A DNA stretch of 64,000 nucleotides from positions 353 to 64,352 of the forward strand of contig NZ_DAOLHN010000011.1 of assembly GCF_035329025.1 (NCBI RefSeq), read 5' to 3'. The translations under genes were made by a program, and so were the position numbers. Positions 11,200 through 51,437 of the stretch are shown here, piece after piece. This stretch comes from Sphingorhabdus sp. Lineage in GTDB: Bacteria; Pseudomonadota; Alphaproteobacteria; Sphingomonadales; Sphingomonadaceae. The notes beneath the pieces were generated by a model. The model made no database searches and was not told the origin of the DNA. It saw only the letters and a list, made by a program, of their open reading frames with translations. Every line of letters begins with the position of its first letter. Within the stretch, counting starts at the first letter, position 1.

Positions 11200-11240
11200 G
11201 ATTGACCTGCGCAATTTGCGGGCTTAACCGCCCTCCCCGT

Positions 11241-11396
11241 AACAGGTGCCCAGGGAAACCGGGGTGAAAAGGGAAGCCGGTGACAATCCGGCGCTGTACC
11301 CGCAACTGTGACCGGCGAGTGTCTTCCTCGCATACCACTGGGAAACCGGGAAGGTAGGTAGACGCAACGACCCGGGAGCCAGGAGACCTGCCTGTT
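11241..11396 (+). ncRNA. Cobalamin (AdoCbl) riboswitch
   Basis: AGGTG...AAAAGGGAAGCCGGTG..AATCCGGCGCTGTACCCGCAACTGTGA...CCACTGGGAAACCGGGAAGG...GAGCCAGGAGACCTGCC; P1 aacagg/cctgtt; lies upstream of a TonB-dependent receptor. Confidence 0.95.
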
Positions 11397-11506
11397 GCAG
11401 CCAGTCCTTCGCCCGTGCGGGAAAACGCGGACGATCGAATGAAGCTTCTCAGGAGCTTTCCTTCGCGTGACGGCATTTGAATGCATCGTCACAGGAAGGA
11501 AATTTT

Positions 11507-48453: not shown

Positions 48454-48846
48454 ATGGCACACAACCCCGCAGAAATCTGGCACCGCGTCGCGCTGTCGAA
48501 AGATGTCGCCGAGATTGAAAAGATCCTGCACGACGACTGTGTTTTCGAAAGCCCGGTCGTCCACAGCCCGCAGCTAGGCAAGGCTATCACCTCCAAATAT
48601 CTCGCTGCTGCCGGCCACACGCTGGGCAATGATACATTCCGCTATGTCGGCGAATGGCACCGCGAGAACAGCTCAATCCTGGAATTCACAGCCGAAATCG
48701 ACGGTATCAAAATCAATGGCATCGACATGATTTCATGTGACGATGATGGCCTGATCACCCATTTCAAAGTGATGGTGCGTCCTTTGAAAGCCGTGAATAT
48801 GCTTCACCAAAAAATGGGCGAGATGCTGGCAGCGATGAAGGGCTGA
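48454..48846 (+). CDS. NTF2/SnoaL-like protein
   Basis: F.SPVVH, F.Y..E, GID.I..DDDG.I..F.VMVRP. Confidence 0.85.
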   Translation: MAHNPAEIWHRVALSKDVAEIEKILHDDCVFESPVVHSPQLGKAITSKYLAAAGHTLGNDTFRYVGEWHRENSSILEFTAEIDGIKINGIDMISCDDDGLITHFKVMVRPLKAVNMLHQKMGEMLAAMKG

Positions 48847-49547
48847 TGCAGCGACTGCGCCTGTTTGTGCCCCTGCTCGCCGGGGCAAGCCTGCGTGATC
48901 GCAGCGGCGCTGCTGCCGGCGCAGCCTTTGGCGTATTGGGGGCCGCCCTCACAGGCATGCTGATTGGATATGCCTTTCCCGATTTTCCGTTCCTGGTTGC
49001 GCCTATCGGCGCCTCGGCAGTTCTGGTTTTTGCCGTGCCCGCCAGCCCCCTCGCCCAGCCGTGGCCGGTATTCGGCGGCAATGTGGTTTCCGGCTCTGTC
49101 GCCGTAGCGGTTGCCTATGCAATTCCCGATCCGGCGCTTGCCGTCGGACTGGCAGTCGGGCTGGCGATCATGGGAATGTCGATCCTGCGCTGCCTCCACC
49201 CGCCCGGCGGTGCCGTTGCGATTACTGCAATATTGGGTGGGGATGCCATCGTGAAGGCAAGCTTTGCTTATCCGGTAACGCTGGTCGCCGCGAACAGTGC
49301 GGCATTGCTGGCAATGGGCTGGCTCTACCATCGTTTTTCACGCCACAGTTATCCGCATCGACCGGAACCTGTGGTCGAGTCCCCCATATTGTCGGGCCTG
49401 CTGCGCGCCGACATCGATCAAGCCATTGCCGAAAGCGGCGAAACCTTTGACATTGATCTGGAAGATCTGGAAAATCTCTTGCTCCGCGCAGAGGCCATTT
49501 CTGCCGACCGGCAGCAACGAGAGGCCAACACCGACTATTCGATCTGA
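48846..49547 (+). CDS. HPP family membrane protein
   Basis: APIGASAVLVF, SPLAQP, LHPPGGA. Confidence 0.92.
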   Translation: MQRLRLFVPLLAGASLRDRSGAAAGAAFGVLGAALTGMLIGYAFPDFPFLVAPIGASAVLVFAVPASPLAQPWPVFGGNVVSGSVAVAVAYAIPDPALAVGLAVGLAIMGMSILRCLHPPGGAVAITAILGGDAIVKASFAYPVTLVAANSAALLAMGWLYHRFSRHSYPHRPEPVVESPILSGLLRADIDQAIAESGETFDIDLEDLENLLLRAEAISADRQQREANTDYSI

Positions 49548-49642
49548 GTGGCATCGACATGGCGGGAGGCAACTGCCGTCGTTGCTACAGGTAAATTCCC
49601 AGTTGAATTTCGCGGCATAATCCCTAAATCGACGCTCGATCC

Positions 49643-49752
49643 GGGCCCCTCTGGCGCATGCGGCGGCATGCGTGATGTCGGATTGTTCATCCGAAAGCGC
49701 GACACGCGGCGCAACCTCCGTCTCTCGGGACGGATTGGACACATAGGGGCCC
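49643..49752 (+). ncRNA. Structured cis-regulatory leader RNA upstream of terC (terC-motif-like candidate)
   Basis: Closing stem gggcccct/aggggccc containing the SD, enclosing four hairpins. Confidence 0.7.
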
Positions 49753-49757
49753 TACAG

Positions 49758-50744
49758 ATGGATTTCCTGTTCGATATGTTTTTGGGTACGCCGGTCTGGT
49801 TCTGGCTTGCCTTCATCGGCATTGTTGTTGCCTTGACCGCCTTTGACCTTGGTTTCCTGCACAAGGAAGATAAGGAAATGGGCATTAAGGAAAGCCTGAA
49901 GCTTTCCGCATTCTACATCGGCATCGCCTTGGCCTTCGGCCTGTGGGTCTGGTATGCCAAAGGCCCCGATCTGGGCATGAAATATTATACCGGCTTCTTC
50001 ATCGAAAAGGCGCTGTCGATCGACAATGTCTTCGTGATCAGCCTGATTTTCACCTATTTCGCGATCCCAGCCAAATATCAGTACCGAGCCCTGCTTTGGG
50101 GCATCATCGCGGTGATTGTGTTGCGCGGCCTGATGATCGCGGCGGGTGCTGCACTGGTGCAGGAGTTCTACTGGACGCTCTATCTGTTCGCGGCCTTCCT
50201 GATCGCGACGGGTGTGAAGATGCTGTTCAGCGGCGATCAGGAAATGGACGTGTCCAAAAATCCTGTCGTCAAGTTCATGAACAAGCATTTCCGCGTCACG
50301 CATGAGCTGCATGGCGAGAAGTTCCTCGTGAAGGTCCCTGATAGCAAGACCGGCAAAATGGTCACCGCGATGACCCCGCTGTTGCTGGCGTTGATCGTTA
50401 TCAATCTGGCGGACTTGGTATTCGCGGTGGATTCGGTACCGGCGATCTTTGCGATCACGACCGACACCTTCATCGTTTACACCTCGAACATCATGGCGAT
50501 CCTTGGCCTGCGCGCGCTCTATTTCGCGCTGGCGGCGATGGTGCACCGTTTCCATTACCTCAAATATGCACTCGCGCTGGTGCTGGTGTTTATCGGGTCG
50601 AAGATTTTCATCTCCGACTTCCTGATCGGCGGCGACAAATTCCCGCCGGTAATCAGCCTGAGCGTGACCTTCGCGTTGATATTGGGCGGGATATTCTACT
50701 CGCTCTGGAAGACGAAGAGCGAGGACCAGCAAGCAGCGGCTTAA
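49758..50744 (+). CDS. TerC/Alx family membrane protein
   Basis: EKALSIDNVFV, DLVFAVDSVPA, SNIMAILGLRALYF. Confidence 0.93.
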   Translation: MDFLFDMFLGTPVWFWLAFIGIVVALTAFDLGFLHKEDKEMGIKESLKLSAFYIGIALAFGLWVWYAKGPDLGMKYYTGFFIEKALSIDNVFVISLIFTYFAIPAKYQYRALLWGIIAVIVLRGLMIAAGAALVQEFYWTLYLFAAFLIATGVKMLFSGDQEMDVSKNPVVKFMNKHFRVTHELHGEKFLVKVPDSKTGKMVTAMTPLLLALIVINLADLVFAVDSVPAIFAITTDTFIVYTSNIMAILGLRALYFALAAMVHRFHYLKYALALVLVFIGSKIFISDFLIGGDKFPPVISLSVTFALILGGIFYSLWKTKSEDQQAAA

Positions 50745-50765
50745 ACCGACCGGTTTCTCCCAGGG

Positions 50766-50805
50766 AAGACCCCGTACCTTGAACAAGGGTGCGGGGTTTT
50801 CTTTT
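50766..50805 (+). terminator. Rho-independent terminator after terC
   Basis: aagaccccgtacc / ggtgcggggtttt stem followed by ctttt. Confidence 0.75.
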
Positions 50806-50861
50806 GGCCGGAGAAGGAAAAAGGCCTTGTGTCCCCTGCCCGCTCTCCCCAAATGGAGGGC

Positions 50862-51437
50862 ATGATTATCGAGACCGAACTGACGCCGAATCCGGCCACA
50901 ATCAAATTCCTGCCCGGACGCATCGTAATGGATGCCGGAACCCGCGATTTTGCCGACCATGAAGAGGCGGAAGCTTCTCCACTCGCCGAAGCCTTGTTTG
51001 GCCTTGGCGATGTGACCGGTGTCTTTTTCGGTCGCGAATTTATCTCGGTAACCGCTGCCCCCGGCGTCAGCTGGGCCGACCTGAAGCCCGATGTGCTGTC
51101 GATCCTGCTCGATCATTTCTCGGCCGACATGCCGTTGTTCCATGCGCCCAAGGCCGGTTTCTCGGTTCCCGCAGCGGATGACGAATATCCGCTCGACGAC
51201 CCCGCCGACGCAGAAATTGTCGACCAGATCAAGGAACTGATCGAAACCCGCGTCCGTCCCGCGGTCGCCAATGATGGCGGCGATATTGTCTATCGCGGTT
51301 TCCAGCGCGGCGTCGTTTTCCTGCAGATGCAAGGGGCCTGTTCGGGCTGCCCTTCATCGAGCGCGACGCTGAAAAATGGCATCGAACAGCTTTTGAAACA
51401 TTATGTGCCCGAAGTGACCGAAGTCCGCGCGGCCTGA
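50862..51437 (+). CDS. nfuA: NifU/NfuA family Fe-S carrier
   Basis: TPNPATIKF, RPAVANDGGD, GACSGCPSS. Confidence 0.93.
   Translation: MIIETELTPNPATIKFLPGRIVMDAGTRDFADHEEAEASPLAEALFGLGDVTGVFFGREFISVTAAPGVSWADLKPDVLSILLDHFSADMPLFHAPKAGFSVPAADDEYPLDDPADAEIVDQIKELIETRVRPAVANDGGDIVYRGFQRGVVFLQMQGACSGCPSSSATLKNGIEQLLKHYVPEVTEVRAA

Follow-up and report, generated by a model that had tools for sequence, protein, structure and literature searches.

On the forward strand of a 64,000-nucleotide stretch of a Sphingorhabdus sp. genome (contig NZ_DAOLHN010000011.1, positions 353 to 64,352; hereafter the window, numbered from its first letter), the gene terC encodes an integral membrane protein of the TerC family and is preceded by a structured leader RNA, which is the subject of this analysis. 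The protein shares its N-terminus, MDFLFDMFLGTPVWFW, with 80 relatives, among which those of Sphingorhabdus species match best (90% amino-acid identity). A sequence-only reading of the window had described the leader as a five-way-junction RNA that locks the Shine-Dalgarno (SD) sequence of terC. We find that the 5′ half of the leader is a full-length member of the terC RNA motif RF03067, with which the proposed junction competes for nucleotides. The features on which the argument rests are as follows.

49633-49690, + strand: terC RNA motif RF03067, full length (cmscan, above threshold).
49638-49644, + strand: 5′ arm of helix P1, GAUCCGG, which pairs with 49678-49684 (Rfam alignment, covariation).
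49643-49653, + strand: conserved strand GGGCCCCUCUG, upper-case in the Rfam consensus; 49645-49653 form the loop strand and 49643-49650 the putative anti-SD.
49654-49673, + strand: P2 hairpin, which contains hairpin 1 (49655-49672) and is predicted in both conformers (covariation).
49674-49677, + strand: GAUG, the 3′ strand of the internal loop (Rfam consensus).
49678-49694, + strand: P1 3′ arm UCGGAUU (49678-49684) and its rival partner AUCCGA (49689-49694), together hairpin 2 (sequence, minimum-energy fold).
49697-49712, + strand: hairpin 3, GCGC/GCGC, a putative clade-specific spacer with an invariant stem, a variable loop and no covariation (minimum-energy fold).
49715-49738, + strand: hairpin 4, UCCGUC/GACGGA with a CC/GG extension, a putative clade-specific spacer (compensatory changes).
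49745-49752, + strand: SD region and 3′ strand of the locking helix, AGGGGCCC (direct reading, pair probabilities, copy count).
49758-50744, + strand: terC, 328 amino acids, TerC family integral membrane protein (PF03741, E = 7e-50).

A cmscan search of the whole window against Rfam 15 gave a single match in the leader region, RF03067. The match scores 56.9 bits, where the gathering score is 39.9, and spans the model from position 1 to position 59 of 59, with E = 3e-7 in the search of the whole window and E = 2e-9 when the local region is searched. The loop sequences of the leader equal the RF03067 consensus, and all 15 P1 and P2 pairs are standard. The motif ends 67 nucleotides (nt) before the ATG of the PF03741 gene on the same strand, and the nearest relatives of both TerC and the leader are Sphingorhabdus spp., within the range of the family (Alphaproteobacteria or Pseudomonadales). 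Thus, by every criterion that could be tested, namely score, helices, loop, gene context and taxon, the leader belongs to RF03067, and it is a new member of a known RNA family rather than a new RNA class. The sequence-only reading had mentioned an orphan terC RNA motif without recognizing this leader as one of its members, and the cmscan comparison that it proposed came out positive for RF03067 and negative for yybP-ykoY and sul1. The five-way junction is not the novel RNA it was taken for, since RF03067 matches its 5′ half over the full model and above the threshold. The absence of a yybP-ykoY identity was borne out: RF00080 gave no match in 49450-49900 even at E ≤ 10 with permissive filters, nor did sul1 RNA in the same interval at E ≤ 10, and beyond RF03067 the permissive local scan (E ≤ 10) returned only noise. 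The term "translational riboswitch candidate", with the cue not named, still suits best what is a structured cis-regulatory RNA upstream of a bona fide TerC gene.

When the terC motif was published in 2017, it was put forward as a probable cis-regulator of TerC genes with no ligand identified, and no metal cation altered the structure of terC RNAs in the discoverers' tests (PMC5737381). A preprint of September 2026 still labels RF03067 a "putative riboswitch", and our search for a ligand or for follow-up literature on the motif returned only these two reports. We found no description of an expression platform or of anti-SD wiring in the main text of the discovery paper (PMC5737381); the wiring of the loop to the SD described below may or may not have been noted before.

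The pairings on which the five-way junction was built can be read directly from the sequence. The closing helix joins GGGCCCCT (49643-49650) to AGGGGCCC (49745-49752), the final G of the SD (49749) lies 8 nt 5′ of the ATG at 49758, and the four enclosed hairpins lie where they had been placed: CGCATGC/GCATGCG at 49655-49672, TCGGAT/ATCCGA at 49678-49694, GCGC/GCGC at 49697-49712 and TCCGTC/GACGGA at 49717-49734. The "purine-rich joins" between them, on the other hand, amount to merely two unpaired A's apiece (49695-49696 and 49713-49714). For 49643-49752, ViennaRNA places the junction at the energy minimum (−57.5 kcal/mol, z = −4.36), a stability that none of 200 dinucleotide-shuffled sequences attains. 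The junction is again the minimum-energy fold of the longer segments 49630-49775 (z = −2.35, with 6 of 200 shuffles equal) and 49636-49775 (−61.4 kcal/mol). In the ensemble of the last segment, each of the eight anti-SD pairs between GGGCCCCU (49643-49650) and AGGGGCCC has a probability of 0.93-1.0, so that the GC-rich helix over the terC SD claimed earlier is indeed a predicted one. For brevity, G43-U50 denotes 49643-49650, and G43 and G44 denote 49643 and 49644.

Complementarity to the SD was also compared with chance. AGGGGCCC occurs twice on the two strands of the window, at the SD site and as the reverse complement of the 5′ strand, with ~2.2 copies expected per 128 kb; by our own arithmetic, the chance of a copy falling within ~15 nt 5′ of the terC start codon is ~3e-4. 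The conserved 13-mer CCGGGCCCCUCUG forms a duplex of −20.0 kcal/mol with the 28 nt ending at the terC start codon, which ranks within the top 1.6% when set beside 1,748 generic gene-start windows taken from related genomes; these controls are conservative, having been picked for good SD sequences. The pairings of the leader are thus real and lie beyond chance expectation.

The family fold of RF03067 comprises P1, P2 and an asymmetric internal loop, formed here by GCCCCUCUG (49645-49653) opposite GAUG (49674-49677). We assembled 185 unique motif instances from more than 190 genome loci and counted pairs directly against shuffled partners. P2 positions 4-6 are paired in 82-87% of the instances, as against ~40% after shuffling, with six pair types. 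The sixth P1 pair is paired in 94% versus 66% and occurs as GC, AU, CG and UA. Covariation in this alignment therefore supports P1 and P2 as the family fold. The five-way junction cannot form at the same time, because both structures use G43, G44 and 49678-49683: the closing helix takes G43 and G44 of P1 together with six nucleotides of the internal loop, and hairpin 2 takes the whole inner part of the P1 3′ arm (49678-49683). The closing helix and hairpin 2 of the sequence-only reading thus exclude the P1 helix that covariation supports. Because of this exclusion, and because the junction is not a conserved architecture (see below), the five-way structure is better read as an SD-locked alternative conformer of the known motif than as its sensor fold.

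The two folds differ in predicted energy and in when they can form. Forcing the Rfam fold in the full leader gives −48.6 kcal/mol, compared to −61.4 kcal/mol for the junction, a cost of 12.8 kcal/mol. When only the nascent RNA up to 49690 or up to 49716 (the first 55 and 81 nt) is folded, the Rfam fold is itself the minimum-energy fold, and the junction overtakes it only once the SD region has been transcribed. For its pairing, the 3′ arm of P1 can draw on either of two perfect partners that lie only 45 nt from each other, AUCCGA (49689-49694) being a one-letter variant of the AUCCGG (49639-49644) in the 5′ arm. In prediction, the SD thus pairs with an upstream strand and is released by a mutually exclusive fold. 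Across the family, nearest-neighbor energies never favor the covarying P1 in the full leader (0.2-0.3 of its 7 nt), which is expected if P1 needs stabilization from outside; such models also under-rate large structured internal loops.

The junction recurs in four further leaders from Sphingorhabdus or close relatives (L081, L121, L122 and L124), with predicted gaps of 12-14 kcal/mol between the two folds. The Sphingorhabdus isolate S. buctiana also has a leader almost identical to that of the window. In P2, the pair A58-U69 becomes G-C in L081. In hairpin 4, L121 and L122 carry compensatory double changes (G20-C31 to A-U and U21-A30 to C-G), and L124 has a longer hairpin at the same site. The stem of hairpin 2 is invariant across the clade and its loop variable (UGUUC, UAAUC, UUCUC). 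In L124, which reads GGGGCCUG, a register shift of one position keeps the 8-bp SD helix, and the helix is likewise kept with a register shift in L168 (GGGCCCG). These changes fit real helices. Hairpins 2-4 were not found outside the clade. In four distant sphingomonads with the motif directly before terC (L168, L159, L166 and L174), the SD helix is kept with gaps of 2.7-8.4 kcal/mol, and the spacer hairpins are different or missing. The five-way junction is hence no conserved architecture, being confined to the closest Sphingorhabdus relatives.

To place the SD pairing in the wider family, we collected 53 leaders with the motif directly before a TerC gene, with start codons fixed by protein homology, and divided them into 24 of type A and 29 of type B. 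Type A leaders carry an extra hairpin, CCGCAUCG...CGRUGC (also written CCGCAUCGrG...CyCGrUGC), directly after the P1 3′ arm (examples are L128 1329-1503, L007, L021, L190 and L195); type B leaders, among which the leader of the window is counted, have no second conserved hairpin. In the predicted ensembles, the conserved strand is the main partner of the SD for 19 of the 29 type B leaders. The duplex between conserved strand and ribosome-binding site (RBS) has a median of −14.5 kcal/mol in type B, as against −11.0 kcal/mol for generic starts (Mann-Whitney p = 5e-4); values of −16 kcal/mol or below are reached by 44% versus 11.6% of the 1,748 generic windows, and of −19 kcal/mol or below by 22% versus 2.5%. 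TerC orthologues that do not lie directly behind the motif have weaker duplexes than type B (median −6.8, p = 6e-8). In chimeras carrying generic RBS regions taken from the same locus, loop-SD pairing falls from 66% to 17% (p = 1.5e-4), and none of 12 chimeras of the window's leader attains its native value. Collapsed manually to ~20 lineages, the RBS enrichment stands at 7/20 and 11/20 (binomial p = 0.006 and 1e-4). Among the lineages are the Sphingorhabdus clade, Allosphingosinicella, Pseudomonas, Minwuia, Phenylobacterium, Methylobacterium and an Acetobacterales genome, and the partner sequences on the SD side vary among lineages (AGGGGCCC, GGAGGGGCUC, GGAGGCCCC, CAGAGAGGGUC and GCGGGGGCC). 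The wiring of the loop to the SD therefore recurs in several bacterial orders.

Two further observations bear on what the conserved strand does. First, the core of the helix across the 18 loop-SD leaders is G43-U50, with G43 included at 0.85 and G44 at 0.83; the regular inclusion of these two nucleotides in the anti-SD helix argues for an exchange with P1 rather than coexistence. Second, the strand is equally invariant in type A leaders, whose SD pairs with a local CU-rich linker instead. Anti-SD duty alone is therefore insufficient to account for its invariance, and a role in the sensor core is indicated. When the same mechanism was extended to type A, forcing the aptamer left the predicted SD access the same (0.35 to 0.38), and the modeling points to a different design of the type A expression platform.

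These observations lead us to a model in which the leader combines the RF03067 motif with an expression platform whose two folds, each excluding the other, would control translation, a reading to which we give even chances. In fold 1, which would form first on the nascent RNA, P1 (49638-49644 with 49678-49684) and P2 (49654-49673) would enclose the GCCCCUCUG/GAUG loop, and the SD would lie outside the long-range lock, allowing terC to be translated. In fold 2, G43-U50 would quit the motif to form eight GC-rich pairs with the SD region at 49745-49752, the freed 3′ arm of P1 would be caught by the 5′-arm mimic AUCCGA in hairpin 2, and hairpins 3 and 4 would serve as spacers. Fold 1 would be stabilized, and terC turned on, by a cue that may be a ligand or else a physical signal, for example a divalent cation or an alkaline pH; without the cue the leader would relax to fold 2 with the ribosome site locked. 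We infer that the RNA switches at all, that its cue turns expression on and of what nature that cue may be. The ON direction is suggested because the covarying, conserved fold is the one in which the SD is open, because the conserved strand is invariant in type A too and so probably has a second role such as part of a binding core, and because TerC/Alx genes are induced through yybP-ykoY riboswitches. A more specific version, which we hold somewhat less likely than not to be right, is that the invariant GGGCCCCUCU strand is both part of the sensor core and the anti-SD in translational ON switches, and that Sphingorhabdus has added the mimic, the two spacers and a lock ~13 kcal/mol deep that would be set kinetically during transcription.

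Several results weigh against this two-fold model. The locked fold is predicted to be more stable by 12.8 kcal/mol here and by 12-14 kcal/mol in the clade, a wide margin for a thermodynamic switch, which would then need kinetic trapping or a strong tertiary or ligand energy. Forcing the aptamer in the window's leader lifts the predicted SD accessibility merely from 0.21 to 0.28, because a weak local hairpin replaces the lock. Ten of the 29 type B leaders and nearly all of the 24 type A leaders have no loop-SD pairing. Being rich in purines, SD sequences match any CCUCU-like strand in part, and in a site-agnostic comparison 13-mer complements of −16 kcal/mol or below are as frequent downstream (48%) as upstream (47%) of the motif, so that only the RBS-anchored tests are significant for this complementarity. 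The locking helix is beyond true covariation scoring, since its 5′ strand is invariant. Contigs from two wastewater metatranscriptomes (X25 and X26), which span 49424-49752 at low depth and extend 5′ of the transcription start predicted below, show no resolved 5′ end and no proof of read-through. Finally, no metal cation modulated terC RNA structure (PMC5737381).

A deep energy gap is what would be expected if the junction were constitutive, damping terC translation or shielding the 5′ end from RNases, and if regulation by the motif went through a protein or small RNA that recognizes the conserved nucleotides. With the locked fold favored by ~13 kcal/mol, its equilibrium probability is near 1, and that no ligand is known nine years after the discovery of the motif would also fit such a static structure. 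Yet covariation supports P1, which the static fold lacks, the aptamer fold is the best one for the nascent transcript, and the P1 3′ arm has its two perfect alternative partners 45 nt apart. We therefore consider a static role unlikely, if the least so of the alternatives.

The same loop-SD helix would act in the opposite direction if it were a pseudoknot of the H type, with the loop strand bound to the SD and P1 and P2 largely retained; the cue would stabilize this arrangement and turn terC off. Six of the eight locking pairs (G45-U50 with 49745-49750) involve loop nucleotides only and are topologically compatible with P1 and P2, and the invariance of the strand would suit a helix within the sensor. 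On the other side, the predicted helices in the 18 leaders include G43 (0.85) and G44 (0.83) and often reach further into the P1 arm, the dedicated mimic of the P1 arm in hairpin 2 of the clade is only sensible if P1 opens, type A leaders retain the strand without SD pairing, and induction by substrate is the precedent for a TerC-type metal exporter or chaperone under yybP-ykoY. An OFF switch of this kind is in our view improbable, and more so than a static structure.

The two-fold model itself leaves room for a version with no ligand, in which the balance between the same two folds is set by the speed or pausing of transcription, by pH or by temperature, as has been proposed for the alkaline-induced alx leader of E. 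coli. Kinetic control is implied by the large energy gap, no cation modulated the RNA in vitro (PMC5737381), and the alpha-type carbonic anhydrase, Bax1-I channels and TerC/DUF475 proteins encoded behind the motif hint at a pH or cation theme. The ~20 invariant nucleotides of the internal loop are, by contrast, more typical of a binding pocket, and the alx element itself turned out to be a Mn2+ riboswitch tuned by pH. We regard a purely physical sensor as very unlikely. An equally poor prospect is that the complementarity arose by chance from a G-rich SD, a C-rich loop and a GC-rich genome, with the motif acting otherwise (for example on transcription or RNA stability): although 13-mer complements of −16 kcal/mol or below occur in about half of any 252-nt stretch of these genomes and 11.6% of generic ribosome-binding windows reach that value, the eight perfect pairs rank in the top 1.6% of generic start windows, no other AGGGGCCC exists on either strand of the 64 kb beyond the SD site and the complement of the 5′ strand, the RBS enrichment survives the collapse to lineages, and the helix is kept through sequence change in L124 and L168.

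The remaining features of the locus concern the transcription unit.

49603-49630, + strand: promoter-like sequence, with a −35 element TTGAAT at 49603-49608 and a −10 element CTAAAT/TAAATC at 49624-49630 (conserved blocks).
50762-50805, + strand: strong hairpin and then UUUUCUUUU, just past the stop codon of terC, a likely intrinsic terminator.

The GTTGAA and CCCTAAAT blocks of the promoter-like sequence are kept in the Sphingorhabdus relatives L081, L121 and L122, and a weak −35/−10 signal is seen family-wide at −43 to −38 and −21 to −16 relative to G49644; a promoter scan did not flag the site at 49603-49630. Transcription would start at ~49636-49639, at the foot of P1. Two of the metatranscriptome contigs end at 49747-49752, in the SD region, at a depth too low for interpretation, and DNA near-identical to 49300-50900 is present in many activated-sludge and wastewater metagenomes (runs X1-X20 and X25-X26). 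Downstream, the 71-nt stretch 50745-50815, which contains the terminator hairpin, folds at −38.6 kcal/mol; a simple terminator scan missed the hairpin at 50762-50805. An A-rich 5′ flank pairs with its U-tract, and the hairpin may terminate transcription in both directions. Because the promoter-like blocks would start transcription at the foot of P1 and a hairpin with a U-tract follows the stop codon, terC is probably a self-contained single-gene unit with a leader of ~120 nt.

A coding role for the leader was rejected. An in-frame GTG at 49548 would add 70 codons to terC. Relatives do not conserve this extension, which in L124 is interrupted by a stop one codon ahead of the ATG and in L121 is thrown out of frame by a 1-nt indel. 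Two minus-strand open reading frames over the leader (49338-49742 and 49535-49885) found no support. The neighbors of terC (48454-49547 and 50829-51437) encode a SnoaL-like protein, an HPP-family membrane protein and a NifU/Nfu iron-sulfur scaffold protein, and have no obvious functional tie to terC; the HPP-family gene stops at 49547, 90 nt before the motif. Elsewhere in the window, a full-length cobalamin riboswitch aptamer (RF00174, 130 bits) lies at 11227-11409 on the + strand.

In the window's clade, terC follows the motif directly and no DUF465 gene intervenes. Most sphingomonad TerC orthologues have the motif ~430 nt upstream, and between it and terC come first a small DUF465 gene (PF04325) and then a hairpin (loci L123-L200; for example L131 1077-1500, L141 and L150). 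Directly behind other terC motifs (L001, L098, L029, L094, L119 and L089) we find genes for Bax1-I/YccA-type channels, Zn_ribbon_TFIIB (COG3809-like), DUF4112, DUF475/TerC and alpha-type carbonic anhydrase proteins. The genes behind the motif hint at pH or divalent cations as the theme of the signal. Two exact matches to the motif core came from unexpected sources: one in an actinobacterial metagenome-assembled genome (MAG; L102) appears to lie inside a coding sequence and is probably due to chance, and one in a Synechococcus MAG (L070) may be a binning artefact.

Membrane proteins of the TerC family are widespread and have been linked to how cells handle and export metals, manganese among them, and are often under the control of Mn2+-sensing yybP-ykoY riboswitches. 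In Alphaproteobacteria and some pseudomonads, the terC motif stands in for yybP-ykoY, and its signal has been missing since 2017. The leader described here shows compactly how the motif could be wired to translation, with a conserved strand serving as the anti-SD. This wiring predicts the direction of control, in which the signal turns terC on, and gives a concrete design for reporters and mutants. If the model is correct, translational reporters built on this leader could reveal the cue, and with it what alphaproteobacterial TerC-type proteins respond to.

Compared to the published terC motif, the leader shares the P1/P2 hairpin with the GGGCCCCUCUG/GAUG loop, the location in the 5′ untranslated region of a TerC gene and the proteobacterial range (PMC5737381). 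The published and Rfam models of RF03067 end at the aptamer-like hairpin, whereas here a candidate platform becomes visible, consisting of the pairing between strand and SD, the mimic of the P1 arm and two spacers. The yybP-ykoY riboswitch (RF00080; the alx and mntP leaders of E. coli) likewise regulates the TerC/Alx family from the 5′ untranslated region. Its known members are ON switches, and alx, which is responsive to alkaline pH, regulates translation by means of alternative folds of its leader. It senses Mn2+, whereas terC RNAs were not modulated by Mn2+ or other cations (PMC5737381). The two also differ in build, the yybP-ykoY aptamer being a four-helix, two-stack structure and the terC motif a single bulged hairpin.

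In the add adenine riboswitch of Vibrio vulnificus, the aptamer competes with an SD-sequestering helix, and stabilization of the aptamer frees the ribosome site. The strand-exchange logic of this translational ON switch is the one proposed here for the terC leader. In add, the exchanged strand comes from the aptamer's 3′ side and the two states differ little in energy, while in the terC leader the 5′ loop strand is the putative anti-SD and the predicted gap is ~13 kcal/mol. The SAM-II, preQ1-II and Guanidine-III riboswitches are OFF switches, and their SD helix belongs to the fold that binds the ligand. They share with the terC leader the direct pairing of a conserved aptamer strand with the ribosome-binding site; unlike theirs, the SD helix of the terC leader overlaps and excludes the covarying P1.

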